Origin: an uncultured Chthonomonadaceae bacterium
GTDB taxonomy: Bacteria > Armatimonadota > Chthonomonadetes > Chthonomonadales > Chthonomonadaceae
DNA: 64,000 nt
Direction: 5' to 3'
Assembly (NCBI GenBank): GCA_963835065.1
Contig: CAWIEK010000049.1
Span: forward strand, 256,001 to 320,000
Part shown: in pieces, positions 1,684-62,312 of the stretch
Layout of the letters: each line of letters opens with the position of its first letter
How positions within the stretch are numbered: the stretch's first letter is position 1
The notes under the pieces: generated by a model
What the model was told of the DNA's origin: nothing
The model's input: only the letters and a program-made list of their open reading frames with translations
The model's database searches: none
Program-made: the position numbers and the translations under genes

Positions 1684-3448
1684 ATGAAGGCGTCCCAATT
1701 GTTTATGCCGACCCTGCGCGACGTTCCCAAAGACGCGGAACTGAAAAGCCATCAGCTGTTGCTGCGGGGCGGGTTTGTGCGGAATGTGGCGGCAGGCGTG
1801 TACTCGTACCTGCCGCTTGGCTGGCGGGTGCATGAAAAGATCGCGCAAATCGTGCGAGAAGAGGTAAATGCGTTCGGCGGGCAGGAGATACACATGCCCG
1901 TGCTGGTTCCCAAAGAACTGCTGGATGAAACGGGGCGGTCTGCCGTGCCCGTTTTGTTTGCCTTGAAGGACAAGAACAAGCGCGACTTCTTTCTTGGGCT
2001 TCACGCATGAGGAAGTGGTCACGGACATTGCGCGGGGCACGGTCAGTTCGTGGAAACACATGCCGCTTTACCTGTACCAGATACAGACAAAGGAGCGGGA
2101 CGAACCCCGTCCACGCGGCGGGCTGATTCGTGGCCGCGAGTTCACGATGTTCGACGGCTATTCTTTCGACAGCAGCGACGAGAACCTGAGCGTGATTTAC
2201 CGCGCCAATTACCGCGCTTATGAGCGTATTTTTCAGCGCTGCGGGCTGGAGTATCTGGCGGTGGAAGCCGATCCCGGCGCGATTGGCGGCAGCGAAAACC
2301 ACGAGTTCATGGTGCTGACGGAAAGCGGCGAAGACACGGTTCTGCGCTGCGATACCTGCACGTATGCGGCCAACGCGGAACGGGCGGAAGTTCCCGCAAA
2401 TGATGAACGCGGAGTGATGAATGATGAGCAGGATGCTAATTCATCACTCATCACTCATCACTCATCACTAGTCTCAACGCCGGGAGCGCATACGGTGGAG
2501 CAGGTGGCGGCGTTTTTGAAGGTGGATGTGACGGAAATACTGAAGACCATTATTGCGCTTGCGGATGGGAAGCCGGTGGCGGCGCTGGTGCGGGGGGATC
2601 GAGAACTGAACCTGCCCAAGTTCGCGCGGTTTGTAGGCGCGAAAGAGGTGGTGCTGGCGGACGCGGCGACGGTGATGCGGGTGACGGGCGCTCCGGTCGG
2701 GTTTGCGGGGCCGGTGGGACTGGCGGAAGCGGTTCCGATTTACGCGGATAATGAGATCGCCGAGGGAACCGGCTACGTGGTGGGCGCGAATGAGGCGGAC
2801 GCGCACCGAACGGGAGTGGTGTTGGGACAGGATTTCACCCCTGCGGCGCGTGGGGATATTCGCACGGCGGTTGCGGGAGATCTGTGCCCGCGCTGCGACA
2901 CGGGCCATCTCACGGATGCGCGCGGAATCGAAGTCGGTCATATCTTCAAGTTGGGCACAAAGTACAGCAAGGATATGAACGCCCTTTACCAAAACGAAGC
3001 GGGAGAAAAGCATCCGATCATCATGGGCTGTTACGGTTTGGGCGTCAGCCGGACGATGGCGGCGGCAATCGAAGCGCACAATGATGAAAACGGCATGGTA
3101 TGGCCGATCAACATTGCCCCGTTTGAAGTAGCGATTGTGGTCGCCAACATCAAGGATGAACTGCAAATCAACGCGGCGCGGGAGTTGTATGGCAGCCTGA
3201 AAGCGCAGGGCGTGGATGCGTTGCTGGATGACCGCGAGGAACGGGTTGGCGTGAAGTTCAAGGACATGGACCTGATTGGCGTCCCGATTCAGGTTGTGGT
3301 AGGCAAGGGGTTGGCAGAGGGAAATGTCGAGGTCGGTTTGCGGCGAAGCAAGGAAGCGCGGGCCATCGTGCCGGCTGTAAGCGCGGCAACCTACATCGTG
3401 AATCTGGTCGGGGAAGAAAAGGCGCGACTGCGCCCTGCCGACGCCTGA
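1684..3448 (+). CDS. proS: Proline--tRNA ligase with INS editing domain; +1 frameshift near 1995
   Basis: [71 protein letters not shown]. Confidence 0.97.
2401..2468. repeat. In-frame heptamer fold-back element in proS: (TGATGAR)n ... (TCATCAC)4
   Basis: Read directly; encodes [24 protein letters not shown]. Confidence 0.85.
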
Positions 3449-3485
3449 GCCGGGTATTAAGAACCTATTCCAACAGGCGCGGCAG

Positions 3486-3572
3486 TTGCGTCCTGCGGAC
3501 GCAAATCTGTAAGAAGATTCTCGCGTCCGTAGGACGCTTGCACTTTCCTGCCGGGGATTTTCAATCCCCGGC
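3486..3572. repeat. REP-like palindrome cluster
   Basis: gcgtcc-tgc-ggacgc and near-inverted copy gcgtcc-gta-ggacgc, plus gccggggatt-ttc-aatccccggc. Confidence 0.6.
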
Positions 3573-3655
3573 CAGTATTTCACAGCAAGCGTTTTCATTA
3601 CCTGCCGGGTGCTGTGGGTAAGATTCATGCCCACGTATATTAATGTTAAGGAAGA

Positions 3656-7083: not shown

Positions 7084-7102
7084 GAAAACTCCTGTTTAAG
7101 CA

Positions 7103-7132
7103 GTTGATAGTTGATAGTTCGTAGTTGATAGA
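7103..7132. repeat. (AGTTGAT)n heptamer array
   Basis: agttgatagttgatagttcgtagttgatag; the same string occurs near 62263. Confidence 0.8.
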
Positions 7133-8866: not shown

Positions 8867-8867
8867 A

Positions 8868-8925
8868 TAGTTGATAGTTGATAGTTGATAGTTTGTAGTT
8901 GATAGGGAGGCAGGAACTTCGCGCT
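8868..8925. repeat. (AGTTGAT)n array plus GGGAGGCAGGAAC tail
   Basis: agttgatagggaggcaggaac is shared with the copy at 21662-21725. Confidence 0.8.
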
Positions 8926-11567: not shown

Positions 11568-11600
11568 ATTCGGTGTTCGGTATTCGGTAATCGGTAGTTG
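11568..11600. repeat. (TTCGGTR)n heptamer array
   Basis: attcggtgttcggtattcggtaatcggtag; related arrays at 5867-5900, 35022-35115 and 59168-59200. Confidence 0.7.
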
Positions 11601-16452: not shown

Positions 16453-16453
16453 C

Positions 16454-19223
16454 ATGCCAATCCGCGCGGAGAATTACTCGCCTCCATCCATTCTATCTGT
16501 CCGACGCGCTCCGCGCCTTACCGCCTGCGCGTGGGAGTACCCGTTTCTCCTCGCTTTTGCCATGCTGCTGCTCTGGCCGTTGTGCCGGGGGCGTTCGCTG
16601 TACTGGGGCGACATCATGCTGTACTTTGCGCCGATGCTGCATTTTCAGCAGGCCGCGTTACAGCAGGGGCATATTCCGCTGTGGAATCCCACTATTTTGG
16701 GAGGCCAGCCGCTTGTCGGTAATCCACAGATGGGCGTGTTCTATCCGACAACGCCCTTGCTGCTCGTGATGCCCGTCTGGCTTTACATGAGCCTGACCAC
16801 AATTGGACACGTTTTCCTGTGCGGAATCTGCATGAACGCCTACTTACGGGAGTGGACGCAGGATCGCTGGGCGCGACTGGCCGGCAGCCTGACGTACATG
16901 GGCAGCGAGTGTCTGATCGGGCGTATCCAGTTCCCGCCGATGATCTTTTCCGCGCCGTATTTTCCTTTGCTGCTGTGGTGCATTGACCGCTGCCTGGTCG
17001 CCGAACACGCTCACTGCGGCTGCCGCAGAAAGGGAACAGAGAACAGGGAACAGGGAACAGAAGAAGGAAGAAAAGAAGACAGCAGGACAGGGAACAGGGA
17101 ACAGGGAACAGGGAACAGGAATTCGTCTGTTCCGATTGAACCTAAAACAAAACATGAACATGAAACGGAAAACGCGAACGTAATCGAAGCAGTATGTGTT
17201 GAGAATGGCGACTCTACAATTTCGTTGGGTCTACGCTGCGAGACATGCATGCGCGTTCAACGGCAGCGCGTTTGGACGCGCGTTCGATTGTCGCTTGTTG
17301 TCGGCCTGCTGATACTTGCCGCGCATCCACAAATGGCCTACCTGATACTGGCTGTCGGCAGCATTTACACAACGGCGCGTTTGTGGAAGCAAGCGTTACA
17401 TGGCGAACAGACGGCAGGCAAACCGGCGTTATCCGGCAAAACAATCTTTGAACTGCGCGACAGTTCCCATAAATACCCTCGCGCCTCTAATTTACGCGCT
17501 TTCATCCGAACATTGGCTTCGAGCGGCGCGGGACTTTTCGGGGCCGGCCTACTGGGACTGATGCTGTCCGCCGTACAAGCGCTGCCTGCCCTGCAGGTAC
17601 TGCTGGAAAGCCCGCGCGAAAAACTGACGCCGGCGCAGGCCAATCGCTTTTATCTGGAGCCGGCGCATCTGCTGCGGCTGATACTGCCGCGCTTTTGGGG
17701 ACATCCGGCCACTGCGGATTACTGGGGGAGCGGCAATGCCTGGGAACCGGCTTTCTTTGTCGGGTGGCTTCCTCTGCTATTGATTGGTCTTGCCTGCTTT
17801 CGGCTCAGAAAAATCGCGCAAAGTGATGTTCTGGCTGGCAGCCGCGCTGTCGGGAATATGGCTGGCGTTCGGTAATCAAGGCGGGCTTTACTGGCTGGCG
17901 TTCAAAATCGTGCCCGGCTTATCGAATTTTCACGACCCAGCTCGTTTCCTGCTGTTTACGACGCTGGCCTTCGCTGTGCTGACAACAATAGGATGGAACA
18001 TCGGCTGGCAATTCATTTCACGCCGGTTTAAGCGCGAACAATTGTGGGAGAAAATTGGTTTCCTGCGACGTTTTGCATCCTTACAAAGAGCCGGACGTTT
18101 CGTAACGCCAAAACAATCGCGTTTGCTTGTGTTTACCTTGCGGAGTGTCGGAATTGCAGGCATAGCTTTACCCTTGTGGTGGTACGGCAGGGATTGGAAT
18201 CCAACTGTGCCGCATGAGTTTATGGAACGGCAGTCTCACGCGCTTGCTCTTGCGCAGCCACGACCCATTAATGTTACGAAACCAAACGTAACAAATTCAT
18301 CCGATCTAACGAATGGTTCCTTAGACAATTCCCGGCAGCGCATCTATCTTCCCGCCCACGAACCGTTCTGGAAGCGCTATATTACGGATGGGTACAGCGA
18401 TTATGGCTCTGTTGATGCGCTCCATATACAAGCCATGCTGGATACGCTGCTGCCGAATCTAAATATGCAGTGGGGCGTGGACTCGGCCTCCGGTTACGAA
18501 CCGGTTCCGCTTTCCGCGCCGGCCAACGTGGATGTTCTGGGACGACTGGCGCTGCGCAGAAGTGAACCTAATCTGTCACGCCTGCTGTCGCTGATGGGCG
18601 TTGGAACGCTGCTGCTGCCCTCCGAGGACCACATTGCCGCTTCCAGCCTGTCGCCGGAAAATGATCGCCGCTTAGAAGTACGCGCGTGGCGCAATCTGAA
18701 TGTTCTGCCGCGCGCCTGGGTTGTACATTCCCTCCGCCGCGTGGAGGGCAAAACTCGTCTCAGCGCCGCGCTCGCCGCGCCCGACTTCCACCCGGCACAA
18801 CTGGCTTTGATTCAGGATGCGGTTGAAGGGGAGGGGAAGGAAGCCGAACTGGAATGGCCTGCGCCACAAGCGAATGACAAATCTGAGAATAGTTCGACTC
18901 CTACGCCTGTTCACCTCGTGTATTCGGATACACACAGTTTTCAATGGAATGTGGAGGGCGGGGGAGAACCGGGTTTTCTGGTAGCGCGCGCGACGGCGTT
19001 TCCCGGCTGGCAGGCGGAATTGGATGGGCATCCCACACCCCTGCATCGCGTGGACGGGGCGTTGATGGGCCTGTACTTGCCGCCCGGCAGCCATCGCGTT
19101 GCCCTGCGATATGCGCCTGCCTGTTACCGGTTTGGTGGGTACTTATCCCTGCTGGCCTGTGGAATGTTAAGCGCGGCTGCGGGCTGGCTGCTTACTTCCC
19201 GACCAAAAAGAGTCCAAACCTGA
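16454..19223 (+). CDS. YfhO-family membrane protein (GT-C-like); +1 frameshift near 17810
   Basis: GDIMLYFAP, IPLWNP..GGQPLVGNPQ..FYP, HPQ, F.DPARF, PRAW, FPGWQAELDG, GSHRVALRYAP. Confidence 0.85.
17031..17140. repeat. In-frame (GGGAACA)n element in the YfhO gene
   Basis: Encodes GTENREQGT..GNREQGTGNR; 17118-17136 is the exact reverse complement of 19833-19851. Confidence 0.85.
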
Positions 19224-19266: not shown

Positions 19267-21114
19267 TTGAACGTCTCTAACACCTTCAGAATCATAACTG
19301 CGCTGCTTTTATGGGGGGCGCTGATACTGCTTCGCGTAGTACATCTCGACTCGGACGCTTACGCGCGCCTTTCCTGGAGCAGCGCGCTCCTGACGGACGA
19401 AGGCTTTTATATCCACAACGCCCGCAACATCATTCTGTTCGGACAGATGCGTACCGACGAGTTCAATAACGCGCTGATCATGCCCTTGCTGCATCTGGTT
19501 CAAGTGGTCGTCTTTACTCTGTGCGGCGTCGGAGCGATTCAAGCGCGGCTGATTTCCGTTGCCTGCAGCCTGCTTACGCTTGCCGTGTTCTTTTGCGCCC
19601 TCCGCCGCGCCTTCGGCAGCCGCGCAGCATGGCTCGGCCTTGCCCTCCTCGGCCTTGATCCCGTCTTCGCGCTTTACAATCGCCTCGCCCTGATGGACAC
19701 GCCCGCCTGCCTGCCGTTGTGCGCCGCCTTTTATGCGTGGACGCGAACGAAGGGAAAAGGGAAAAGGGAAAAGGGAAAAGAAGAAATAGAAGACAGAAGA
19801 CAGAAGACAGAAGATACGCAACTCCAGCCTCTATCGGAACAGACGAATTCCTTTTCCCTTTTCCCTTTTCCCTTTTCCCTTCCCTGGCTGTTACTGTGCG
19901 GCGGCTGTCTCGGCCTGGCGTACACCGTCCGGGGATTGGCGGCGGTGATTGTGCCCGTGCCGTTTGTGCTGCTGTTGGTAAGAAGAGAGGGGAGCAGACG
20001 TTCGCGGGTGCGGGATGCGCTGCTGTTGTTCGTCGGGTTGCTGTGCGTCCTCGCGCCGTATGCGCTTTTATGGTATCTGCCGCATCGTCAGGAGATGGCC
20101 CATGCCAATGCGTATTACACGCGCCAGCAACTGCTTCCCCAAAATGGACACGTCCTGCTTGAAAACATAGAACGCGGTTTATTCAACGGTGGGCGTGGGA
20201 TGTTACCCTACTTGCTGAAACACTCTACGGCTTTGACATTGTTAGCGATTTCGTATGCCGCGACCTGTCTGTGTTCCTGGGCAGGGCAATGGCTTGGACG
20301 CTGGAAACAACGCGACACACAACAGAAAAGCAATTTACAACAAAATAATGGCCGACAAGAAGACAATGCAGGATTAAAAAAGACGATAAGCACTGAATTG
20401 TTTCTTGCCGGATGGCTGTTGCCCCTGCTCATTCTGACACTGTGCGTAAATTACGCGCCAAGCCGGTATTATGTTCTATTCTATCCGCCGCTTGCCGGTT
20501 TTGCGGCTATATATGCAGATCAACTACTGAGCCGTGTACAGAAATGTCTACGCGATGGAGCGCAAGGGAATAGACACAAGGCTTTGGCGCATTTGTTCGT
20601 AACGAATTTGTTCATAGTAGGCTGGATTGCGGGCGGCGTATACTGGTACGCGGATTGGCTGCTGCATCTCAGTTACCGGCAGCGGGACGCGGATCGCTGG
20701 CTGGCAGCAAATCTGCCGCCTGACAGCGTCCTGATTGGCGCTGTGTCGCCGGGATTAAGCATGAACAACAGGTTTCGGTGCGTCAACGTCATTGAGAACC
20801 TGTGCAATGATGAACACCCGGTCGAAGACGCCGCGCCCACGCCGCGCTACATCGTTTTGTTGGATCGTGAAGCGGGCTACGCGCCTGTTCCGGCCTCCTC
20901 GTCACCCGGCATCATCTCCTATAGAGATAAATGGGCGGATAGATGGAAGGAGCGCTACTGGCTGCGCCGTTATCCTGACCTTGTGCAGCCGCAGCGCCGT
21001 ATCAAGGCGTTTCCAAATATGCTGAGACCGTTCTTTACCATTGGCGTTTACCCGGTCCCGGAAGCGTATTCACAAAAAACGGGACGGAACGGCAAAGTAA
21101 CTGCGCAGCCCTGA
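19267..21114 (+). CDS. ArnT/PMT-like (GT39/GT83) glycosyltransferase
   Basis: TDEGFYIHNARN after TM1, ARLISV, RLALMD, RYY, many TMs. Confidence 0.8.
   Translation: MNVSNTFRIITALLLWGALILLRVVHLDSDAYARLSWSSALLTDEGFYIHNARNIILFGQMRTDEFNNALIMPLLHLVQVVVFTLCGVGAIQARLISVACSLLTLAVFFCALRRAFGSRAAWLGLALLGLDPVFALYNRLALMDTPACLPLCAAFYAWTRTKGKGKREKGKEEIEDRRQKTEDTQLQPLSEQTNSFSLFPFPFSLPWLLLCGGCLGLAYTVRGLAAVIVPVPFVLLLVRREGSRRSRVRDALLLFVGLLCVLAPYALLWYLPHRQEMAHANAYYTRQQLLPQNGHVLLENIERGLFNGGRGMLPYLLKHSTALTLLAISYAATCLCSWAGQWLGRWKQRDTQQKSNLQQNNGRQEDNAGLKKTISTELFLAGWLLPLLILTLCVNYAPSRYYVLFYPPLAGFAAIYADQLLSRVQKCLRDGAQGNRHKALAHLFVTNLFIVGWIAGGVYWYADWLLHLSYRQRDADRWLAANLPPDSVLIGAVSPGLSMNNRFRCVNVIENLCNDEHPVEDAAPTPRYIVLLDREAGYAPVPASSSPGIISYRDKWADRWKERYWLRRYPDLVQPQRRIKAFPNMLRPFFTIGVYPVPEAYSQKTGRNGKVTAQP
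19750..19883. repeat. In-frame fold-back element (GGGAAAA)4-(AGACAGA)3-core-(TTTTCCC)4
   Basis: Encodes KGKGKREKGKEEIEDRRQKTEDTQLQPLSEQTNSFSLFPFPFSLP. Confidence 0.9.
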
Positions 21115-21662: not shown

Positions 21663-21725
21663 TTAGATAGTAGATAGTTTTTAGTTGATAGTTGATAGGG
21701 AGGCAGGAACCGCGAACTTTCAGCG
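21662..21725. repeat. (AGTTGAT)n array plus GGGAGGCAGGAAC tail
   Basis: Matches 8868-8925. Confidence 0.75.
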
Positions 21726-23095: not shown

Positions 23096-23213
23096 AGGCA
23101 GGTTTCAGGTTTCAGGTTTCAGGAAAAACTCTTCATTTAACGTTGATCTAGTAAATTCATCGAGTGGAATGAACAGTGAGTTCTCCCTGACACCTGAAAC
23201 CTGAAACCTGCCT
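23096..23213. repeat. Fold-back element with (GTTTCAG)n arms; 28-bp inverted repeat with 1 mismatch
   Basis: Arms 23096-23123 and 23186-23213; internal TGAACAGT. Confidence 0.9.
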
Positions 23214-24506: not shown

Positions 24507-26760
24507 ATGATACAAACCGATTCACGCGCTGTTTCCCTTTCTCCTATGGCTGCTTCTCCCGCGTTGCGCTGGCTCAAGCGTCTTGGCTGGCTGCTGGTTG
24601 CCGCCCTGCTTATCGCCATTGGCAGCAGGGTCAATAACAACCTCAAAGAATACTATCAGGATGTTATTTTGCAGTGCGGCTTTGCCATCATCCTGGCGGT
24701 CAGTCTCAACATCGTCAATGGGCTGACCGGGCAGTTTTCCATCGGCCATGCCGGGTTTATGGCTGTGGGCGCGTATACCGGCGCGAGTATTACGTATCAG
24801 GTGGCTCTTCAATCCCATGTTGCCAAACCCGGATTGCCCTGGATGCTGCTGGCAATGGGGGTGGGGGGGGTATGCGCGGCGCTTGCGGGCTATATCGTCG
24901 GCGTGCCGAGTTTACGACTGCGCGGCGATTACCTTGCCATTGTTACCCTGGGTTTCGGCGAAATCATCCGCGTAATTCTGGAAAATATCGGTGACATCAA
25001 CGCCTCCCTGTCCTTTACCGGGGGCGCTTCCGGTTTTCAGAACATCCCTACGCTGTCCACCTTTGGCATCGTGACCGCTACAGCCATCGTTGTGATCGTG
25101 CTGGCGCGGAATTTGAAGTTTTCCTCGCACGGCCTGGCTTTTATGTCCATACGCGAGGACGAAATTGCCGCAGATGCTATGGGCGTCAATACTACCCGCA
25201 TCAAAGTGACGGCTTTTGTCCTGAGCGCGTTTTTTGCCGGGGTGGGGGGCGTCCTGTTTGCGCACTATAAAGCCATCAAACCGGATACGTTTGGGTTCGT
25301 CCTGTCCATGAACTACGTCGTCATGATCGTATTGGGAGGAACCGGCAGTATCACGGGCGCGACAATGGCGGCAGTGGGCCTGACGATCCTGCCGGAACTG
25401 CTCAAACCCATTAAAGACAGAGTTCCCTTTTTCACGGACGAGTACCGGCAGGTCATTTACGCGCTGCTCCTTGTGCTGATGATGATCTTACGTCCGACGG
25501 GCGTGTTCGGCACAGGCGAGTTGAGTTTGGCGGGGCTACGGCGATGGTTCCGGCGTGGCAAAACGCCCGTGACCTCGCTTGCAGAAGGGCTGACGGCGGA
25601 AGGCAACCGCGCGCTGGAAGATGCCACCAGCGAGGCGCTGGAAGAGGGGAGTAAGCCGACAGGCGCGAACGCGGAAGTCACGCGCTCACATTCCTCAATG
25701 TCAGCAATGCAGTCTTCGTTCGCGTCTTCCACTTCTGCGCCCTCTATGCTTGACCGTAGCGATATTCTGCTCGACGTTGCCGATTTGACCCGGCGCTTCG
25801 GTGGGCTGACGGCAGTGGGGAATGTCAATTTACAGCTTCATAAAGGTGAATTGGTTGGCCTGATTGGTCCTAACGGCGCGGGCAAAACCACCGTTTTTAA
25901 TCTACTGACCGGCGTGTATGAGCCTAGCGAAGGCCGTTTGGATTTCGACGATCAACCGTTGGCCGGGCAGCGCCCGACGCTGCTAACAACACGAATAGCG
26001 GGATTGGCGTTGGATACGGTCATTGCGGCGTTCGCGGGCTGGATCATCAGTACCATTATGGCGACTGCGATTGTGCCTGCCGCGACCACGCCCCAAGCGG
26101 TTCATCTGCAAGCCGTCATTCGATGGCTTGGCCCGATCATCGGTATTGCGGCTTCGCTTGCCACGCTGCGCAATCGCCGCAAATTCGTGCCCGGCTACAA
26201 GCCGTATCGCTTTGCGCTACGCGGCATTTCGCGCACCTTCCAAAATATCCGCTTATTTGCCGATTTGACGGTACTGGAGAATGTTCGCATCGGAACCTAC
26301 CTCCGGCGGCAAACCAATGTTTTTGATGCCTTGTTCCGCACAACCCGCCTGGAACGCGAGGAAGCCGCTAACATCGAAAAGGCGCGGCGCTTGCTTGCCG
26401 AATTCAATCTGCTGCGCGTTCAGGATGAACAGGCGAAGAATCTGCCGTATGGCGATCAGCGCCGGCTGGAAATCGTGCGCGCGCTGGCAACCGATCCCGA
26501 AATTGCTCCTGCTTGATGAACCGGCAGCAGGCATGAACCCGCAGGAAAAGGGTCAACTTATGCACCTGATTCGCCGCGTCCGGGACGAATACGGCCTGAC
26601 CATCCTGCTGATTGAGCATGACATGAAGCTTGTCATGGGCATTTGCGAACGCATTTACGTATTGGATTACGGGCGCATCATCGCTGAAGGAACGCCGCAG
26701 GAAATACGCAGCAATCCCAAAGTCGTGGCCGCTTATCTGGGCGAGGAAAGTAATGAGTAG
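24507..26760 (+). CDS. Fused LivM permease - LivG ATPase; +1 frameshift near 26497
   Basis: [69 protein letters not shown]. Confidence 0.9.
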
Positions 26761-31048: not shown

Positions 31049-31083
31049 TCCTGAATCCTGATAGTAACCATCAAACCGCTGAG

Positions 31084-35115: not shown

Positions 35116-35190
35116 CACCTACACTATATATTCACACTCCCACTGACTTTTAGAAGGTCGAGCCACCACTATTTTGAAAAATTATGAAAT

Positions 35191-38152: not shown

Positions 38153-38331
38153 ACCCGCCCTCTATTTCCCACATCAAGATTATCACTCTTACGACTTCCA
38201 CATCTCGCCACGAAATCTTATACCCCGTTCAACGCAGAACTAAGCCAAACAGTTCCATCAGAAGTGGAGAGTGCTGAGTGAGTGTGAGAGTGAAATGGGC
38301 TTCTACTCCCCATTCCCTACTCCCTACTCCC

Positions 38332-39669
38332 TTATACCGTCGCCTGCACACTTGTCATAAACAGCAGCGCCAGAACGGCGAGAATGGCTAACAAGGCGGC
38401 TCCGGCATGGCCTTTGTACTTGGGAGGGAAGCAAGCCTGCCAGCCCATTGCCAGCAGCAGGCAGATCGGCAGCATCGCCGGGTACAGATACCGTCCTTGC
38501 GCCTGAAAATACTTGCTCAGAAAAAGCGCAAACGACGCGCCGACAAGAATTAACGTTGCCATCAGCAACTGAATGAACTTCTGCTGCGCTTCCGTGAATA
38601 CGGTTTTGCGGACGAAATGCAGGCGTATCAACCCACCCAACGCGCTGATGCAAACCAGCAGGGGCAAAATGTAAATCTGAATGGGCAGAAACAATTGATC
38701 GCCAATCCTGGCTGAATCCTTGTTGCCGTACACAGCCCAAAAACTGAGAAACGAGCGTAACGAAACGGCTTTAACATACTCGAACGTTCCAATATGCGCA
38801 ATAAACGCGCTTGCCTGCGCCGTGCCGCCAAATGCCTGATTAAAGGTTTTCAGCGGCAGCAGTTCCCCGTACAACTGCTGATTGCGAACCAGCCACCACC
38901 CGCTGATAACGAGCATCAGCGTCAGCGCCCACAGCAGATTGCGGGCAAGATTGGCCGCAGGTTCCCCACCCCGCCACAGCAGCGCAAGCGCCAGCAATGT
39001 CACCGGCAGGAGCAGCAGCGCGGTTACTTTCGTCAGCAGGGCAAGGCCGAGGAGGATGCCGAGCCATCCCGCCCGCCACAGGGAAAAACCGCGCAGCAGG
39101 GATTGCGCCAGCAGCCACAAACACGCGCTGAACCACGCTTCCAAAAGAACGTCATTGTTGATCGTCGAGGTAATGGCGATATGGGACGGCAATAAAGCGG
39201 CAACGCCTGCCGCCACAACAGCCAGAATCGGCTCATCGGGGAACATCAGGCGGGCAGTGGAATACACGAGCAGGATACAAACAAGGCCGAGCATAATGGA
39301 CGCGACCCGCATTCCCTGTCCGCCCAACGGCACAAACAGGCGCGTCCACACGTAATACAACGGCGGCTGATGCCATTCATACGCTTGCCCGCTTTTGTCC
39401 AGCGTAGCCGACGCCTGCGTGGGCAGATGCCCCGACACCAAACTTTGTACGTAACGAACATGCGCAGCCTCGTCCGGCGCGTTTTGATAGCCCGTTTGCC
39501 CAACCGGAACCCAACTCGCGTGAAGCCCTGCCAGAACCAGATAAACTAGCAGAAGAAGGGGCAGTACGGCCTTCCACGCTCCGGGCAGGGGTTGCGGCGC
39601 GGGCGGAAGCGGCGACAGGGGCGGGCCGGGATCGCTCAAAAGCGGCTTACGGCGCGGCGGACGGCTCAC
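38332..39669 (-). CDS. GT39/DUF2142-like membrane glycosyltransferase
   Basis: APDEAAHVRYV, YEWHQPPLYY, INND, QAQGRYLYP; GTG start overlaps the upstream TGA. Confidence 0.82.
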   Translation of the reverse strand: MSRPPRRKPLLSDPGPPLSPLPPAPQPLPGAWKAVLPLLLLVYLVLAGLHASWVPVGQTGYQNAPDEAAHVRYVQSLVSGHLPTQASATLDKSGQAYEWHQPPLYYVWTRLFVPLGGQGMRVASIMLGLVCILLVYSTARLMFPDEPILAVVAAGVAALLPSHIAITSTINNDVLLEAWFSACLWLLAQSLLRGFSLWRAGWLGILLGLALLTKVTALLLLPVTLLALALLWRGGEPAANLARNLLWALTLMLVISGWWLVRNQQLYGELLPLKTFNQAFGGTAQASAFIAHIGTFEYVKAVSLRSFLSFWAVYGNKDSARIGDQLFLPIQIYILPLLVCISALGGLIRLHFVRKTVFTEAQQKFIQLLMATLILVGASFALFLSKYFQAQGRYLYPAMLPICLLLAMGWQACFPPKYKGHAGAALLAILAVLALLFMTSVQATV

Positions 39670-41979
39670 GGCTTCCCTCCCTGTGGCGCAATGCTTGACG
39701 GCGCGACATTTTGCGGCGTAACATTCGGCGACATGCCTTGGGGCGCGGCGTTCGGCGCATCGCTCGTACTTTTCATTTGCATCACCACGCAGCCATGTTC
39801 GTTGAAAATCGGCGTCCACAAGCCCCGCTTGATGGCGTCGCCCATCAGTTGATGCCCCCGATCTCCCGCCGCGCCTGTGGTCAGGCCCTCCACATACCAC
39901 TTTTGCAGCGCATCAACTTCCACGCCGTTCGGCCCACCCGGAAAATCAGGGTCACGAGTTCGGCCCGTTGTTTTGCGCCGCCTGATTGAGATTTATCAAG
40001 GCGTATTCAATCCCGTGCCCGCGAAACCACACGGTCAGTTCCGCGCCGTTTTGCAGCGTTTCGTAAGGAATGTAGGACGAGTGCTGCTGATTAGCCCACA
40101 CATACAACCGATCCAGATAAAAGCCCCGCGTTTCATCCACAAGAGCGATACCGGCGCTTGGGGGAGTGTTCTGGTTAATCCATTGTTCGGCATCATAAGC
40201 GTCGAAGTGTCGGCGTAAATCCATGTCCCATGCCTGCGGCTGCGCCAGATTAGCGAACAGGGTCGGAACCGACACGCTGGAAGGCATTTGTCCCAATTGC
40301 GTCAACGCCCTGCGCTCATCCCCATTGGCGTTCATCGGCAGCGTACACACAGACAGCAGCACATAGCCAGCCTGCCCGAAAACAGCGACAATGCCCAATA
40401 CGCCCGGCACTTGGGCGAATGTCAGGCGTGGCAGGCGTTTCGCGCTACTACTGTCAGCATTACCGCTACTCTCCGTAAACACAAACCGACACGCGGCATA
40501 CGCGCCCACAATGGCAAACAAAGGCATTACCTGAATCAGATAACGCCCCACCTGCGACAATATAAACCACGCCAGAACCTGCCCCATGCCAAGCCACAGC
40601 AGACCGCGAACGGCAGGCGATATTCGACGGACAAACGCTAAGGGAAACACAAGCGCGGCGTACAATCCCCCAAACAACGCCGTAAAATTATATTCCCCCG
40701 GATTGCAGTACAGGACGCTCGATTTCACGTTCGGGCGCGTCAGCAAATGCCAGGGAACCTGTAGGATATTCAGCAGCTTGCTGCGAACATCCGGCGACAG
40801 AGGCTTAGTTCCGAACTTGTCCTGCTCCGATTGATAGGAAGCCGCGCGTTCCAGACTCCAATAACGGCTCTGCGGAAACGCTTTCGTCACAAACGGATAC
40901 ACGGGATTGCGCATCACAACGATGTTCTTCACGTACCAGGGCGACCCAATCGCCAGCGCAACACCGACAAACAACGCAGTCTTTCGGATTGGAACCCGCG
41001 TCAACAACAGCATGATCGTCATCAACCCGAACGGCACAAGCGCCAGATACTTCATCCCCAGCGCGAAGCCCATGAGCGCCCCGGAAAGGAGGAGAAGGGA
41101 ACAGGGAACAGGGAACAGGGAACAGGTATCTGCTTGTTTTGATAAAGGCGGTAATTGTACATCTTCTGTCTTCTGTCTTCTGTCTTCTGCGACCTCCCTG
41201 TTCCCTAACCCCGAAACAAGCGCAAAGGCGGCGAGCGTGGTGTACGTGGCGAGGCCGACATCTATGTACGCGACACTGCACTCCCACAGTACCATCGGGG
41301 TCGTGACGAACACGACGGACGCCAGCCAGCCGACAACAGGCCGCAATACCCGGCTGCAAAAGCCGATTATGCCCATCACAAGGAAGCCGGCTAACAGCAA
41401 ATGGAACAGATTGGAAAGCGCGTAGCCATTGTAAAGCAATCCTGCGGCGAAGAGCATTTCCAGGGTAAACGGAAAGTTGCTGTGATGCTCGGTAGGAAGG
41501 TTGGGAATACGATGCTGAAGCAGAAACAGCTTTGGATCGGCAAGATGATAGGAAAGCGCGTCCCATTCCAGCGGTCCCGGCGGACGAAAACAGGCGAGGA
41601 GCGCAATTAAGCCGAAAACAATCAGAAAAATTACGCAGGCGATAATCAGCCCCGTTTCCAAGCCCCACTTTGATGCCGATGCGACAGCAGCGTTACGCTT
41701 GCGCTGTCGCCAAGACTGAAAATCGCTGCCATAACCACGCCAACCACCCCACCCTGCCGCTGCCAGCGCCAGCCACCAACAAGTGACCGGCCAGAAAGAT
41801 AACAGTCCTGCCAGGCCGAGCGCGTACACGCCATAGGCGGCAATGCCCAGGCCAAGCGCCCCGCCATAAGCCAGGCGTTCCAAGGGCGCAAAGATGGGAA
41901 GATCAAGCCGATCCAGCAGCGCGCGTCCAACGGCAGCGGCAATGCAAGCAAATAGTATTATCAGCAACAGTGCAATCAT
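39666..41979 (-). CDS. GT39/ArnT-like membrane glycosyltransferase; +1 frameshift near 39960
   Basis: WDALSYHLADPK, PWYVKN...NPVYPF, RYL; continues in ORF 39666-39923. Confidence 0.8.
41096..41212. repeat. In-frame fold-back element homologous to 19750-19883
   Basis: Encodes GNREVAEDRRQKTEDVQLPPLSKQADTCSLFPVPCSL. Confidence 0.9.
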
Positions 41980-45827: not shown

Positions 45828-46363
45828 TAGACCTGAAAGACAGGGAAACGCTGCCACGCCATAATCATGTACTGAACCGCCTGCGCATTTTCTATTATGC
45901 GCCCGTTGCAGTTTGGATTGTCGTGATTTTTCTCGCGTCCACGCAGTTGGGAGCGGAACAGGTCACGCTTCATGCGCTCATCCGCCTGCTGAAACTGCTC
46001 ACTCCAGATCAGGCCAGCGCCTTGAACGCGGACGCCATCGGCAAAACCAACTTCTTAATTCGCAAATGCGCGCACCTCAGCGAGTACGCCATTCTCGCCC
46101 TGCTCACCGCCCGCGCCGTACAGTTCGGGCACGAACGCTTGAAGTGGCAGGCTGTCGCGGCAGGTTTCGCGTTCAGCGTCGCCTACGCCTGCACGGATGA
46201 ATGGCATCAAAGTTTCGTCGGCGGCAGAACGTCCAGCATCCACGACGTTTTCATAGACGCCTTCGGAGCCGCCTTCGCCCTGACGCTGATGCTGCTCTGG
46301 TTTCGTATCAAGGCGTATGAACGCAGTTTGAGGGAAAAGGAGACAGGAAAAAGGGAAAAGTAA
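45824..46363 (+). CDS. VanZ-family membrane protein
   Basis: RKCAHLSEY, YACTDEWHQSFVGGR..DVFID. Confidence 0.9.
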   Translation: MIDLKDRETLPRHNHVLNRLRIFYYAPVAVWIVVIFLASTQLGAEQVTLHALIRLLKLLTPDQASALNADAIGKTNFLIRKCAHLSEYAILALLTARAVQFGHERLKWQAVAAGFAFSVAYACTDEWHQSFVGGRTSSIHDVFIDAFGAAFALTLMLLWFRIKAYERSLREKETGKREK

Positions 46364-46420
46364 CAGCGTTGTTCAATGGGCGCATTGTCCTTTTTCCTTT
46401 TTCCTTTCTCCTTTTCCCTA
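46331..46420. repeat. Fold-back element (GGGAAAA)/(TTTTCCY) overlapping the VanZ C-terminus
   Basis: agggaaaaggagacaggaaaaagggaaaag ... ctttttccttttttcctttctccttttccct-like right arm; TGTTCAA core. Confidence 0.8.
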
Positions 46421-48832: not shown

Positions 48833-49687
48833 GTGAAATTCACGAAAATGCACGGTATCGGCAACGACTTTGTTGTTGTGAATACCTTAGCCGAAGTTTT
48901 AGAAGAAGCGCAGTACGCAGACAGCAGCCGTCGCCTGTGTCACCGGAAGTTCGGCGTGGGCGGGGATGGACTGCTCCTGGTTCTGCCATCCAAAGTCGCC
49001 GATTACAAAATGCGGATGTTCAATCCCGACGGCAGCGAAGCGGAAATGTGCGGCAACGGCATCCGGTGCTTTGCCAAGTATATTTATGACCGCAAAATGG
49101 CTTCGGATACGCAAGTCAAGGTGGAAACGCTTGCCGGCGTCAAGGTGCTGCGCCTGCTGCTCCGCGCCGGCAAAGTGGAAGCCGTCCGCGTAGATATGGG
49201 GCAACCCCTGCTATTGCGCTCAGAAATCCCTATGCGTGGCGACGACAATGGCCGCGTCATCGGCGAAGGCTTGAAAGTGGAAGGGCGCAAGTTCGATATT
49301 ACCGCTGTTTCTATGGGCAATCCGCACGTTATTATTTTTGAGGATCATGTGGAAGAGTTTCCCCTTACCAAATGGGGGCCGCTCATCGAAACGCACAAAG
49401 CCTTTCCCGAACGCGCCAACGTCCATTTCGCGCAGATTTACAATCAGGGAGAGATTCGAATACGGACGTGGGAACGAGGCGCGGGCGAAACTCTTGCCTG
49501 CGGCACGGGAGCCTGCGCCAGCGTGGTAGCCTGCGCGCTCAACAACAAAACCGGGCGCAATGTCCTTGTGCATTTGCCGGGCGGCGACCTGCGTATCGAA
49601 TGGATGGGCGACAACCGCGTCGTCATGACCGGCCCTGCCGAACAAGTCTTCGAAGGCGAGATAAATCTGGATGACCTCCACTTTTAG
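48833..49687 (+). CDS. dapF: Diaminopimelate epimerase
   Basis: KMHGIGNDF, EMCGNGIRC, SMGNPH, ERGAGETLACGTG. Confidence 0.97.
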   Translation: MKFTKMHGIGNDFVVVNTLAEVLEEAQYADSSRRLCHRKFGVGGDGLLLVLPSKVADYKMRMFNPDGSEAEMCGNGIRCFAKYIYDRKMASDTQVKVETLAGVKVLRLLLRAGKVEAVRVDMGQPLLLRSEIPMRGDDNGRVIGEGLKVEGRKFDITAVSMGNPHVIIFEDHVEEFPLTKWGPLIETHKAFPERANVHFAQIYNQGEIRIRTWERGAGETLACGTGACASVVACALNNKTGRNVLVHLPGGDLRIEWMGDNRVVMTGPAEQVFEGEINLDDLHF

Positions 49688-49876
49688 ATTTTCGATTTTC
49701 GATTGCCGATTTCCGATTTCTGCTTATTCAAATGGCTATACTCCCTGCCTGAATAATGCAGCCAACCTGTTAGCGTGGAGCATCCAATGACAGAATCTAA
49801 CTCGCCTTCCGCCACGCATCCCCAATCGGCAATCGAAAATCAGCAATCGAAAATCGAAAATCGGCAATCGGCAATT
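49686..49876. repeat. Fold-back element (TTTTCGA)n...(TCGAAAA/TCGGCAA)n; right arm lies inside the next CDS
   Basis: gattttcgattttcgattgccgatttccgattt vs aatcggcaatcgaaaatcagcaatcgaaaatcgaaaatcggcaatcggcaat. Confidence 0.85.
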
Positions 49877-51596: not shown

Positions 51597-52628
51597 ATGA
51601 CCGGTATGAGTATTCAGCCTGTAATGGTAACAACCTGGAAGTTTGGAGTGGCAGCGGGGCGCGTGGGCTGGCAGAAATTGGCAAATGGGGCTTCCGCTCT
51701 TGACGCCATCGAAGCGGCAGCCAACGTTACGGAACTCGATCCTGCCGTGAACTCTGTGGGATACGGCGGGCGCCCCAATGCTGAGGGCGTTGTTGAACTG
51801 GATGCTGTCATTATGGACGGCATAAGCCATTCGGCGGGAGCCGTTGCCGGCTTAACAGGTATCCGAACGCCTATTTCCGTCGCGCGCCGGGTGATGGAAC
51901 AAACGCCCCATGTGATGCTCGTCGGCGAGAATGCAAAAAGATTTGCCGTTCAGCAGGGGTTCGTAGAGGAGGAACTCCTTACGCCTGACAGCCTGCAAAA
52001 ATGGCGCGAATGGCAGCGCAGCGCCAATCACGCCGATGTCGCTCATTTCGAGGTCGGCCCGAAAACAACGTCACCGTATGGAGAACCGCATGGCAGGCCC
52101 AACCCCAACGCAGCCGCAGCCGATCTGACGCCGGACAATCACGATACCATCGGCCTGTGCGCTCTGGACGCGCGTGGAAATCTGGCGGGCGGCTGCACAA
52201 CCAGCGGGATGGCGTGGAAAGTGCCCGGACGTGTCGGAGATTCCCCTATCATCGGCAGCGGGCTGTACGTGGATAACGAAGTAGGCTGCGCGGCAGGCAC
52301 GGGGCACGGCGACGAAATGATGAAAGCCTGCGTCACCTACCGCGTCGTGATGCTGATGGAACAGGGCCGCACCGCGCAGGAAGCTTGTGAGGAAACCCTG
52401 CGCTACCTCCTCCGCAAGCGCGATCCCGGCCAGTACGACAACTATGGCGCAGCCCTCATCGCCATCCGCAAGGACGGGCAAATCGGCAGCGCGGCTACGC
52501 GCTCCGGCTTCGCCGCCCCCGACAGATTATGGCAATGGGTCATAACCGACAGCCCCGAACCCACCTTAGAGGAAGGCCCCTACATCTCACGCAAAGCAAT
52601 AATTCCTACCCTGACCCCTGACTCCTGA
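51597..52628 (+). CDS. Glycosylasparaginase / asparaginase-2 (Ntn hydrolase)
   Basis: SVGYGG.P, HDTIG, TTSG..KVPGRVGDSPIIGSG, TGHGD. Confidence 0.92.
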   Translation: MTGMSIQPVMVTTWKFGVAAGRVGWQKLANGASALDAIEAAANVTELDPAVNSVGYGGRPNAEGVVELDAVIMDGISHSAGAVAGLTGIRTPISVARRVMEQTPHVMLVGENAKRFAVQQGFVEEELLTPDSLQKWREWQRSANHADVAHFEVGPKTTSPYGEPHGRPNPNAAAADLTPDNHDTIGLCALDARGNLAGGCTTSGMAWKVPGRVGDSPIIGSGLYVDNEVGCAAGTGHGDEMMKACVTYRVVMLMEQGRTAQEACEETLRYLLRKRDPGQYDNYGAALIAIRKDGQIGSAATRSGFAAPDRLWQWVITDSPEPTLEEGPYISRKAIIPTLTPDS

Positions 52629-52648
52629 CCACTGGCTCCTACTTAAAC

Positions 52649-55117: not shown

Positions 55118-55321
55118 TGTAGATCCCCTTCTCCGATTTGAGATAATCAAGCTGCGCCCGATGGCAACAATATTCAAGATTATTTCACCAAAAAGAAGCG
55201 GCACATCCACAGTTGTGTTGGATGTGCCGCGTAACGATACTTGTTCTGTGCTGAACGACCAATCAGGGAATGTCGCAGTTCGTGTTTCCACATCAACTAC
55301 AAACTATCCATTATCAACGGC

Positions 55322-59163: not shown

Positions 59164-59226
59164 TCTCAATGCCCGAACACCCGAATACCTGAACACCCGC
59201 AGACTGTGACATGAAGGAGAAAAAAC

Positions 59227-59531: not shown

Positions 59532-61001
59532 TCACCCTGTTTTGGAAATGGCGCGGTTTGCTTTTTCCAGAGCCGTACTTAAAAATGTAAGCGCCTGCTG
59601 CAAAGCCGAAGAAGCAGGCTGCTTGCTTTGCGCGTCCCGCACATCTTTCATTCCCGCCTCAATATCGGTGGGAGTGGAGACGGCGACCGCCTGGCGGTAC
59701 TCTTTCAGCGCCTCGCTCCAATTGTTCTGAGTCGCATACGTCAGGCCGAGGTTCAGCCGCACATAAGCCAGCGACGCATCCAGTTCCAGCGCCTTGCGGC
59801 TGTTTTGTATGGCGGCGGCGTACTGGCCCGCCTCATACTGCGACCAGCCCAGATTGCCCCAAATCGTGGCATTGTCCGGCGTAAATTTCAGCGCGGCCTG
59901 ATACGCTTTGATCGCGTCATCCCGGCGCTGCGGCGTATCCAATATCTGCGCCAGCGTTGTTTGCACGCTTGCCTGCTGCGTCGGAATGAGCGCGATTTGC
60001 GCCTGCAATAGCGCCGTTGATCGCGCATCATTGCCTGGCGCGGCAAGTTTCGCGCGCAATTGCGTAGCCGCGATTTCCAATTCGCCGTTCATTTTGCCAA
60101 GCAGGTCTTCCGCTTCGCGCAGTTTCCCCGCGCCGGCCAGCGAAGTGGCGCGTCCAAGTTTGGCCGGCAGATAGTTCCCATTGCTGCGCAGCGCGGCCTC
60201 GTATTCTTCCAGCGCCTCCCGATGCCGGCCTTCCTGTTCGTAGGCGTCTCCCATGCTTGCGTGAGCGGAGGGGCTGTCTGGAGCGCTTCCCAATGCCTGC
60301 AAAAACGCGCCCCGCGCCCGCCGCGTTTCCTTCTGCTGCAAATACACCCCGCCCTGCTGGATATACAGTTCGGGAGAATCGGGTTTCAACTCAATGGCGC
60401 GATCCAACGCGTGCAGCGCCGCCTCGTCCTGATTGGCCTGCAAAAGCGCGTTGGCAAGGAACACATACGACTGCGCGTTTGTCGGCGTCAGGTTCGCCAG
60501 GGTTTGAAACGCCCGCGCTTCTTCGGGGTACTGCTTTTTGGCTTCATACGCGATCCCAAGCCCGTACCATGCCCCTGGACTGGCAGACTTCAACGCGACC
60601 GCTTCCTTAAACGCGGCAATGGCCTCATCGAACTTGCGCGCGGACAGCGCTTCCTGCCCCTTCTTTTCCCATGCTTCCGCCGTCATTTTCGGACCTGCGG
60701 GCACAGCCAACGGCCCAACGCCACCGGGTCGGGTTGCCCCGAACGGTTCCACGCCCGGTTTAAGCGGCATCGTAGGCGCGTCCGTTTTCGACGGCTTCTG
60801 TCCCGGCGACGATTTCCCTGTCGGCACAATTTTAGGGTCTGTCTTACCCGGTTCCGTCTTCGGCTTGGCGGGAGGAGGCTGCTGCGCCTGCGCCCCACAT
60901 AGCGCAGGCAAGCATCCGCCACTCAGCATTACGAGCAGCAAGGCATAACAAGGCGAAAACTGTTTGTCACGATGAATACGTTTGTCACGGTTAAAAAGCA
61001 T
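59532..61001 (-). CDS. Secreted TPR-repeat protein
   Basis: Signal-like N-terminus, P/K-rich linker, multiple TPR units. Confidence 0.88.
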   Translation of the reverse strand: MLFNRDKRIHRDKQFSPCYALLLVMLSGGCLPALCGAQAQQPPPAKPKTEPGKTDPKIVPTGKSSPGQKPSKTDAPTMPLKPGVEPFGATRPGGVGPLAVPAGPKMTAEAWEKKGQEALSARKFDEAIAAFKEAVALKSASPGAWYGLGIAYEAKKQYPEEARAFQTLANLTPTNAQSYVFLANALLQANQDEAALHALDRAIELKPDSPELYIQQGGVYLQQKETRRARGAFLQALGSAPDSPSAHASMGDAYEQEGRHREALEEYEAALRSNGNYLPAKLGRATSLAGAGKLREAEDLLGKMNGELEIAATQLRAKLAAPGNDARSTALLQAQIALIPTQQASVQTTLAQILDTPQRRDDAIKAYQAALKFTPDNATIWGNLGWSQYEAGQYAAAIQNSRKALELDASLAYVRLNLGLTYATQNNWSEALKEYRQAVAVSTPTDIEAGMKDVRDAQSKQPASSALQQALTFLSTALEKANRAISKTG

Positions 61002-61152
61002 GTGATTACCCTGATGCTGAAATGTGCCTGCGCCTGTATGATCCTAAATTAACGGCGCGGGAAAACGACGAAATTCCTACAGGAAAGCAGCCTGTCATTG
61101 TCGAATTGTTGTCACAACTACTCAGCCAACATAACTCCGTACAGGAACCATT

Positions 61153-62262
61153 ATGATACCCGAAACCAGCCGCGCCGCGATTCTCCCCGCGCCCGGCGCA
61201 GAACCCATTGTGCGCCGCTACCCCGTTCCCCCAATGGAACCGGGAGCCATTCTGCTAAAAACATTGGCTTCCGAAGTGTGCGGAACCGACGTGCATTTAT
61301 GGCATGGACGCTTGGCCGGCGTTCCCTACCCTCTTATCCCCGGCCACGTCAGTATCGGCATTGTCGAAACCATTATGGGCGAAGCGCTTGACGTCAACGA
61401 AACGCCCATTCGGGCCGGTGACGTGGTAACGTTTTTGGACGTGCATGGCACCTGCAATCGCTGCTGGTACTGCCTTGTCGCCAAAGCCACTACCCGCTGC
61501 CCCCACCGCCGCGTGTACGGTATCACGATGGGAGCCAATGACTTGCCCGGATTGGCAGGCGGCTGGAGCGAACGCATTTATTTACGTCCCGGAACCAAAA
61601 TCGCGCGCCTTGCCCCCGGCGTTTCGCCCGATGCGTGGATAGGCGGCGGCTGCGGCCTGCCCACCGCCGTTCACGCCATCGAACTCGCTAAAATTCGCCT
61701 GGGAGATCGCGTACTCATTCAAGGCAGCGGTCCGGTCGGTCTCAGCGCCTGCGCCCTCGCGCTGCTCAGTGGCGCAAGTTGGGTCGGCGTAATCGGCGCT
61801 CCCGCCGCCCGTTTGGAAGCCGCCCGTAAAATTGGCGCGGACTGGACGTGCGACATTGAACATGCAAACCGTGACGAACGCCTGCGCCTTGTTCGAGATG
61901 CCACGAGCGGACGCGGCCCCGACATCGTTATCGAAGCCAGCGGCAATCCTCACGCCGTACCCGAAGGCTGCGAACTCGTCCGCGATGCGGGCCGCTACAT
62001 CATTGTCGGCCAGTACACCAACAACGGCGACGTTCCTCTCAACCCACACCTGCACATCAACAAAAAACATCTGGACATACAGGGCTGTTGGGGTTCCGAC
62101 TTTTCCCATGTCTACAACGCAATGGAAATCATGGCCCGCTTCGACGCCCGCATTGGCTGGGCCAATTTAATCTCACATCGTTATACGCTGGAACAGGTTG
62201 GCACTGCCCTGCGCGACGTAGAACAGGGCCGCGTCATCAAAGCCGTCGTCGTGCCGGATTAA
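61153..62262 (+). CDS. Zinc-binding alcohol dehydrogenase (MDR family)
   Basis: CGTDVH, GH, CNRCWYC..C, GSGPVG, IEASG. Confidence 0.92.
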   Translation: MIPETSRAAILPAPGAEPIVRRYPVPPMEPGAILLKTLASEVCGTDVHLWHGRLAGVPYPLIPGHVSIGIVETIMGEALDVNETPIRAGDVVTFLDVHGTCNRCWYCLVAKATTRCPHRRVYGITMGANDLPGLAGGWSERIYLRPGTKIARLAPGVSPDAWIGGGCGLPTAVHAIELAKIRLGDRVLIQGSGPVGLSACALALLSGASWVGVIGAPAARLEAARKIGADWTCDIEHANRDERLRLVRDATSGRGPDIVIEASGNPHAVPEGCELVRDAGRYIIVGQYTNNGDVPLNPHLHINKKHLDIQGCWGSDFSHVYNAMEIMARFDARIGWANLISHRYTLEQVGTALRDVEQGRVIKAVVVPD

Positions 62263-62312
62263 AGTTGATAGTTGATAGTTCGTAGTTGATAGAAGATGCA
62301 GAAACTACGAAC
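62263..62312. repeat. (AGTTGAT)n array with a short inverted arm
   Basis: Same string as 7103-7132; the following actacgaac is the inverse of gttcgtagt. Confidence 0.8.

Follow-up and report, generated by a model that had tools for sequence, protein, structure and literature searches.

The question raised by this stretch of DNA is what its short tandem arrays are and how they come to lie where they do. The window (the whole analyzed stretch of 64,000 nt, G000:C49:256001–320000; window positions count from its first letter) belongs to the genome of an uncultured Chthonomonadaceae bacterium, G000 (8.0 Mb, 71 contigs, 92% complete), and carries many arrays of 7-nt units, often as inverted pairs. 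A preliminary description, made from the sequence alone, took them for one mobile or self-templating family of fold-back elements; all 17 positions named in it carry the units given there, the array at 55292 being a degenerate C-rich arm that is not called by Tandem Repeats Finder. The arrays proved to be the arms of cassettes that are real, family-level and mobile. On the best reading, these cassettes are a non-autonomous, replace-type mobile family, kin to the intervening sequences of rRNA that bear an open reading frame (ORF). We put a rough probability of 0.52 on gene-less cassettes with inward-facing G-rich ends being copied whole and overwriting dispensable DNA, including older cassettes, with the arms read by a protein ring.

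In total, 1,330 period-7 runs with at least 14 matches and 239 period-8 runs were found in the genome, compared with none of either in a shuffled genome. Arms were called with 24 unit patterns drawn from this period census, three or more units being taken as an arm, so that shorter arms and unlisted units are missed. This yielded 2,467 arms in 1,548 clusters, which cover 104,809 bp (1.3% of the genome), with more than 20 unit families coexisting. The same kind of arrays was found in the congener G002 (7.5 Mb, about 79% nucleotide identity; 1.6 Mb compared). Since G002 was assembled separately, the arrays are not an assembly artefact. An Rfam search of the window returned only one tRNA, and four arm-bearing repeat loci had no match. 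The first scan of metagenomes for close relatives found none, and a second one found distant relatives only (best, 62–75% amino acid identity). The contigs of metagenome runs X1–X3 mostly end at arms, therefore single events are not readable there.

The arms have a fixed polarity. Among the 632 two-arm clusters with opposite-facing arms, the G-rich arm precedes the C-rich one in 631, and the order is reversed in a single case; the corresponding counts in G002 are 85 and 0. The 45 units listed as left arms in close inverted pairs are never used as right arms. The arms match in 506 of the 631 G-first clusters (7.7% expected by chance) and bound a short non-coding core as terminal inverted repeats; they are mixed in the other 125. 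Solo arms number 767, and the remaining clusters are stacks or arms of the same direction. The length of 7-mer arms peaks at 30–31 nt (847 of 2,170), with side peaks at a distance of one unit, and that of 8-mer arms peaks at 35 nt; both peaks are alike in G000 and G002. Four whole periods were found in 63% of 2,312 arms, whose phase lies within one base of the family mode at the start in 84% and at the end in 81%. Based on these peaks and the fixed phase, an arm consists of four periods plus a closing anchor, i.e., five anchors, and its size is set by count rather than by length. The exception is the CACAGAG-type 8-mer, which has three units in 95 of 95 arms.

The DNA between the arms shows that cassettes are copied as wholes. 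Spacer lengths peak at about 10–20 and 48–64 nt. Among the 294 spacers of 45–70 nt, 47 have a neighbor at least 70% identical, and all 47 share the arm family of that neighbor (14% expected). About ten of these pairs are segmental duplicates, while the others have unrelated flanks and identities from 0.98 downward. Four of 17 such pairs with unrelated flanks lie less than 6 kb apart (0.1 expected), two direct and two inverted. The proposal of one family gained support from a profile of AGTAGTC spacers, to which the spacers of AGGTKTC, ACGGTAG, AGGGAAC, AGTTGAT, AGGCATY and TGATGAR cassettes score 2.7–6.7 bits versus 0.3–0.5 for shuffled ones, indicating a spacer ancestry common to several unit families. 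The TGAACAG core noticed earlier is real yet minor (13 of 409 spacers versus 3.8 shuffled); it is a piece of this broader, decayed consensus. Target duplications are lacking: the flanks share at least 4 nt in 208 of 506 pairs compared with 207.7 when shuffled.

It had also been suggested that arms are regenerated locally by slippage, which does not agree with the fixed number and phase of their units nor with their traveling together with the spacers. That the arrays are independent microsatellites arising from polymerase slippage is very improbable. Single-unit changes do occur between close relatives, and a bias towards 7-mers has been proposed in work cited by PMC4679880, but slippage is contradicted by the pairing of arms in a fixed polarity, by their fixed unit count and phase, by spacers common to several cassettes and by copies of entire elements.

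Comparison with G002 revealed that sites persist while units turn over. Of the 232 clusters of G002, 154 have alignable flanks, and 131 of these match a G000 cluster, while 23 do not. The unit at the 131 shared sites is another one in 100 cases, a near one in 12 and the same in 19. In the reverse view, 227 of 2,011 G000 clusters are alignable, with 138 shared and 89 empty in G002, although some of the 'empty' sites hold decayed arms on inspection. At orthologous gene ends, 63 carry arrays in both species, 85 and 36 in one only, and 506 in neither (odds ratio 10.4). Within reading frames, 40 of 42 G002 sites and 47 of 56 G000 sites coincide, which would hardly come about if cassettes were inserted independently, given how many tolerant linkers a proteome offers. 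Unit spectra are specific to each species, and the array load per 100 kb is 36.6 in G000, 19.7 in G002 (two four-helix-bundle genes) and 2.9 in the relative G001, where no such gene was found. No array was detected in 18 other relatives sampled (5–60 kb each), of which nine have a four-helix-bundle gene. The claim that the unit changes while the layout holds was borne out by other units at the same sites in G002, and the presence/absence polymorphism was seen between species (G000 versus G002). The loci of the window, with their state in G002 where compared, are as follows.

2399..2469 (no strand): two-arm TGATGAR cassette, in frame, in the linker of prolyl-tRNA synthetase.
7102..7131 (plus strand): single G-rich AGTTGAT arm within a divergent gap.
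8867..8905 (plus strand): solo AGTTGAT arm right behind the stop at 8866; no array in G002.
11568..11598 (plus strand): solo CGGTRTT arm right behind the stop of a fabI-like gene; no array in G002.
17031..17119 (plus strand): two stacked GGGAACA arms, in frame, in ORF 16382–17875.
19750..19881 (no strand): three arms (GGGAAAA, AGAAGAC and CCTTTTC) stacked in frame within a PMT_2 glycosyltransferase gene; G002 has another unit.
21666..21698 (plus strand): solo AGTTGAT arm after the stop at 21662.
23096..23213 (no strand): two-arm AGGTTTC cassette after the stop of a livK-like gene, with TGAACAG in the spacer; a GAGAGTG cassette there in G002.
26760..26862 (no strand): decayed AGGTTTC cassette with an internal 20-bp duplication (26810–26855).
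27580..27701 (no strand): two-arm AGGTKTC cassette that takes up the gap between the stop at 27581 and the ATG at 27705; a different unit in G002.
35022..35117 (no strand): two-arm GGGTRTT cassette.
38262..38332 (no strand): decayed GAGAGT/CTACTCC cassette; an AAGGATG cassette at the site in G002.
41096..41206 (no strand): stack of GGGAACA, TCTTCTG and partial CCCTGTT, in frame, in the minus-strand ORF 39952–41979; other units in G002.
46331..46419 (no strand): two-arm GGAAAAA cassette overlapping the end of a VanZ-like gene, with a reversed TGAACA core; no array in G002.
49682..49875 (no strand): two-arm GATTTTC cassette that provides the dapF stop, its right arm entering the N-terminus of an FGGY kinase; no array in G002.
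52609..52640 (minus strand): solo C-rich CCCTGAC arm before selB.
55292..55318 (minus strand): degenerate AGTTGAT arm, C-rich on the plus strand.
59172..59199 (minus strand): solo arm of the 8-mer GGTGTTCA, C-rich on the plus strand.
62263..62292 (plus strand): solo AGTTGAT arm right behind the stop at 62262; no array in G002.

G002 has another unit at six window sites and is empty at seven. The two-arm elements of the window span 71–194 nt, and the G-rich arms at 17031, 7103, 8868, 21662 and 62263 are unpartnered. At 2399..2469, G002 has a GGGAACA/TCAATCG cassette, while G001 and other relatives have a plain linker. In the contigs of the metagenome runs, one from X2 lacks 50 nt of the stack at 17031..17119, and one from X3 has an extra unit in the cassette at 26760..26862. 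Several other features of the window were recorded. Single bases at 17809 (X1–X3), 26495 and 45653 (both X2 and X3) are absent from close relatives' contigs and look like assembly insertions, splitting genes 16382–19223 and 24465–26760. A non-tandem palindrome at 47298–47345 resembles repetitive extragenic palindromic (REP) elements and has many copies in the metagenome runs; a similar inverted repeat adjoins a small gene at C49:487331, which we take to be endonuclease-like. A 33-nt coding repeat (11 amino acids) of a BON-domain protein at 55670–55844 has no relation to the arms, and a short TCCTGA(A) run at 31043–31062, in ORF 30787–31305, is perhaps a decayed arm.

Gene positions were taken from our own crude gene caller, by which the window sites 17031 and 19750 were wrongly called intergenic. 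By place, the gaps between genes contain 955 (same-strand), 170 (convergent) and 166 (divergent) clusters; a further 243 fall within reading frames and 14 at the edges of contigs. An arm starts at −20 to +15 of 645 of 5,008 strong gene stops (about 13%), and the earlier remark that most intergenic copies start at a stop codon held: in same-strand gaps, 320 of 373 two-arm elements lie within 15 nt of the upstream stop or overlap it. This location close behind stop codons is the one known from REP elements. Where a gap leaves at least 80 nt to spare, 48 of 91 cassettes are still tight on the stop (14 expected). Of 53 cassettes in convergent gaps, 29 abut the stops on both sides; among convergent gaps free of elements, 311 of 468 are longer than 100 nt. 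Some arms provide the stop codon and take the place of the last codons; this is documented by examples against G002, as a systematic test of C-terminal truncation was noisy, probably because of frameshift errors in the G002 assembly. Spacers between tRNA genes are filled by cassettes to within 3–9 nt, and almost exact filling was seen in tRNA operons at G000:C49:430274–431073, C15:52591–52827 and C49:447479–447719. Since tRNA spacers are filled likewise, targeting of stop codons through the ribosome was set aside. It is likely that dispensable DNA is replaced up to the next essential boundary.

Such placement also invites the view that the arrays are host regulatory sites, binding a protein or insulating against Rho, which are held by selection and are only incidentally mobile. 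The arms are conserved at nearly every site, they stand beside about one gene stop in eight, their positions persist between species, and the G-first layout might conceal the C-rich arm from Rho on either strand. The change of unit at most shared sites, the copies inside proteins, rRNA and tRNA spacers, and the empty samples of 18 other relatives speak against this view, which leaves copying unexplained. As a primary function, regulation appears improbable; a secondary role is possible.

At least 243 clusters lie within reading frames, where the readings retained in proteins are mostly hydrophilic. Across 21 stop-free readings, use on the coding strand drops as hydropathy rises (rho −0.83), the extremes being GGGAACA (133 versus 13) and GATTTTC (0 versus 56). 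At 2399..2469, a variant of the TGATGAR unit eliminates the in-frame TGA TGA, and this stop-removing variant is found in 23 of 29 coding-strand G-arms compared with 1 of 39 C-arms. Some arms keep strongly to a single codon phase (39 of 39; 25 of 26), which is not fully explained, and at window positions 19750 and 41096 a hydrophobic reading is retained just before a hydrophobic stretch. Mixed pairs are in frame more often (65 of 125) than matched pairs (24 of 506). The frames stay open, and hydropathy acts as a filter on the readings used; translated inserts of the kind known as Rickettsia palindromic elements (RPE) are a possible parallel. Both the stop-codon adjacency and the hydrophilic readings probably represent what remains after purifying selection.

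Five cassettes lie in rRNA genes, three in 23S and two in 16S. One is a 125-nt insert in 23S rRNA where G002 has a 4-nt loop, that is, a stem-loop inserted in an rRNA helix and absent in relatives, as in rRNA intervening sequences. A 23S–5S copy at G000:C49:338082–341304 has no adjoining 16S gene; the copy on C51 has one. These inserts are among the arguments for an element that acts at the RNA level, with a hairpin cut by RNase III, bound by a ring like that of the protein Avd and reverse-transcribed in trans. The genome has genes for RNase III and for two reverse transcriptases (RTs), the PF05635 family is likened to Avd (PMC10053308), and one 23S copy has many G·U pairs on the rRNA strand. 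Outside rRNA, however, the sense strand has no excess of G·U over A·C mismatches, either in arms (235 versus 354) or in spacers (833 versus 840), and selection for an RNA stem on mRNA was not detected by these counts. The orientation of AGTAGTC spacers, the best-defined family, to transcription is random (27:27), and sharing of the arm family between neighbors less than 1.5 kb apart is indifferent to a strand switch (0.21 across switches versus 0.22 in same-strand runs). Mixed pairs cannot form a stem. Hypermutation of spacers as by diversity-generating retroelements (DGRs) was rejected, there being no adenine bias and A being the best-kept spacer base. An RNA-level element is quite unlikely; the G·U counts and the AGTAGTC orientation speak for the DNA level.

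The candidate for reading the arms is a four-helix-bundle protein (PF05635). All three of its genes in G000 lie between heptamer arms, one of them within the abundant AGTAGTC arms; a gene for such a protein is at G000:C8:32017–32325. An array flanks the gene in 74 of 80 homologues on genome contigs from several phyla, and 38 of the 80 show a matched inverted pair. On the upstream side 60 of 69 arrays are G-rich, and on the downstream side 57 of 63 are C-rich; periods are 7–10, with a modal 4–4.5 copies (3.5–5 copies in 72 of 132). Five chains are present in the solved structures of the homologues 2GSC and 2RLD. By analogy with ring proteins that wrap repeats, such as TRAP, the five anchors of an arm may match the five subunits of a ring, and the pentamer would be the arm reader. 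A five-bundle assembly and the likeness to Avd are cited for the family in PMC10053308.

The larger copies enclosing an ORF, anticipated in the preliminary description, were found around the four-helix-bundle genes and around GxxExxY genes (PF13366), but no arm-enclosed RT was found. All three GxxExxY genes (G000:C19:8329–8673, C39:76631–76981 and C3:174084–174431) lie between inverted 8–9-mer arms, and together with the 95 gene-less three-unit CACAGAG arms they are likely a parallel system with another count. Neither of the two RT genes (PF00078; L004 and L005) is enclosed by arms, and they lie on contigs other than those of the three four-helix-bundle genes; judged by eye, one resembles the CRISPR-associated or group II type and the other the retron type. 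An arm begins directly behind the stop of the second. Of four Y1 transposase loci, three were inspected: two genes lie in long non-tandem inverted repeats and one, a remnant at C49:523718–523942, in 18-mer tandem arms. A 184-amino-acid gene, presumably nucleotidyltransferase-like, lies in 10-mer arms at G000:C70:4941–5492. A screen for larger gene-carrying copies gave no signal: matched arms 300–1,500 nt apart were no commoner than expected from control layouts, and it recovered a single one of the three four-helix-bundle genes. The presence of a four-helix-bundle gene was also rejected as a predictor of array load, the gene not being sufficient, since nine relatives have it and no arrays in the DNA sampled.

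In the mechanism that we propose, the arms would be recognised by a five-subunit four-helix-bundle ring whose own genes bear similar arms. A break at the DNA level may then be repaired by a replacement copied from a sister cassette, and the whole cassette would reach a new place without target duplication, overwriting dispensable DNA and older cassettes, with resident cassettes as the probable preferred targets.

Several results weigh against whole-cassette copying or against its proposed reader. The 125 mixed and at least 99 stacked clusters suggest single-arm events. The arms of AGTAGTC cassettes are only 1.9% off their unit, while their spacer halves are 58% like the consensus, without correlation, and this gap is not explained by plain copying and decay. 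The AGGTRTTC8 spacers give no match to the shared AGTAGTC-derived profile and favor one orientation (23:10, p = 0.035). On the sense strand, folding of spacers is slightly stronger than that of shuffled sequences (p = 0.002). The gene-end table would also be obtained if one third of gene ends were permissive and were filled independently. As to the reader, 20 of 132 arrays beside four-helix-bundle genes exceed 6.5 copies, the nine gene-bearing relatives show no array in 14–60 kb each, and in the 92%-complete G000 most of the abundant units have no resident gene within the same arms. Among the ORFs enclosed by inverted repeats and at three of the four Y1 loci of this genome, no transposase, integrase or RT was tied to the arms, and no catalytic enzyme for the cassettes was found in G000.

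Templated rewriting of single arms is a live rival to copying. Here, arms would be rewritten in place, one at a time, by templated addition of four units to a 3' end, in the manner of telomerase, or by conversion from other arms, while the site and the spacer stay. This would account for near-perfect arms around old spacers, for mixed pairs and stacks (101 of 118 stacked arms lie less than 15 nt apart), for one spacer that occurs with both a 7-mer and an 8-mer unit, and for the G strand always running 5' to 3' inward. Partner arms are more alike than shuffled ones in six of seven families, and orthologous spacers resemble each other marginally more than randomly paired ones do (p = 0.045, n = 26). 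Rewriting in place is nonetheless unlikely, because spacer and arm family move together without exception, whole copies occur at new flanks, element lengths are often unequal at orthologous sites, and the two PF00078 genes are not arm-enclosed. Two further observations touch on single arms. In stacks, the comparison of inner with outer arm age (62 versus 35) is confounded by unit family and was not used. At four loci (L281–L284), AGTTGAT arms lie within copies of another dispersed repeat, over sequence partly similar in G002, a hint that writing may be primed by microhomology.

Whole-cassette copying could be extended to an undescribed bacterial class of transposase-free, replace-type elements in which a pentameric Avd-like ring counts five anchors of any 7–10-nt unit; this extension is tentative, and we consider it possible rather than probable. 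If true, the class would keep recolonising its own sites and write short peptides into hundreds of host proteins, it would account for ORF-bearing rRNA intervening sequences and for a large part of the so far unexplained surplus of heptamers in bacterial genomes, and the GxxExxY nuclease-fold genes with three-unit 8–9-mer arms would be a parallel system. The orphan PF05635 pentamer gains a concrete question, the counting of five anchors. In either case, cassettes are a strong force on this genome, given their share of its DNA and gene stops, the in-frame clusters and the five rRNA inserts.

Among known systems, MITEs (miniature inverted-repeat transposable elements), REP elements and REPINs with their RAYT transposases, and RPE are likewise short, non-coding and present in many copies with inverted ends; REP elements lie near stops, and RPE occur in frame in proteins. 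The cassettes differ from all of these by the lack of target duplication, by counted tandem arms, by replacing DNA and by the lack of a matching transposase among the genes found. The Y1 genes at the three inspected loci of four are not flanked by the same repeats, as would be the case in a REP/REPIN–RAYT system. With regard to DGRs and other retroelements, no RT lies beside an Avd-like gene or inside an element, and no adenine-specific change was seen. The short tandemly repeated repetitive (STRR) sequences of cyanobacteria, to which the arrays had been compared, share with them short, dispersed heptamer arrays in an orientation fixed to neighboring genes but, unlike the cassettes, are single direct arrays. 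The same applies to the Beggiatoa TAACTGA arrays, which are dispersed, short, single and direct (PMC4679880), and which, like the Geobacter arrays, have been proposed as host regulatory sites. The STRR likeness did not extend to the units: these and the Beggiatoa unit together account for one array in G000, an STRR one. No photosystem reaction-centre gene (PF00124) was matched in the 92%-complete genome.

That bacterial genomes have an excess of heptamer arrays has long been noted without being explained; the arrays are usually read as slippage products or regulator sites (PMC4692102, PMC4679880), and paired four-unit arrays have already been published for Geobacter (PMC2700814) and Xanthomonas (PMC4692102). 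In Geobacter metallireducens, paired families of four-unit hepta- and octanucleotide repeats were interpreted as regulator binding sites; as here, 4–5 tandem 7–8-mers form opposite-strand pairs at variable distance, between and within genes, while no shared spacer, four-helix-bundle link or turnover at orthologous sites was seen in that work (PMC2700814). The GGGAATC arrays of Xanthomonas and the GGGGA(C/T)T arrays of Nostoc are G-rich heptamers, mostly of four units, with 70–75 convergent pairs; they are treated as G-quadruplexes, with one unit per genome and 83% in the same context in two species (PMC4692102), in contrast to the many unit families of G000 and their change at shared sites. 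No report of unit turnover at conserved sites or of a count rule was found, most of the subscription literature lying outside the search. In the comparison with G002, heptamer arrays emerge as the termini of a cassette that is copied and that turns over at sites which stay fixed. The closest layout is that of the S23p intervening sequence of Coxiella, a hairpin insert in an rRNA helix with heptamer repeats adjoining a PF05635 ORF (PMC4990558), from which the G000 copies differ in being mostly gene-less and nearly all outside rRNA, with clusters genome-wide rather than confined to rRNA. The cassettes fit neither MITEs nor REP elements, STRR sequences or retroelements; they are the intervening-sequence layout extended over a whole genome.

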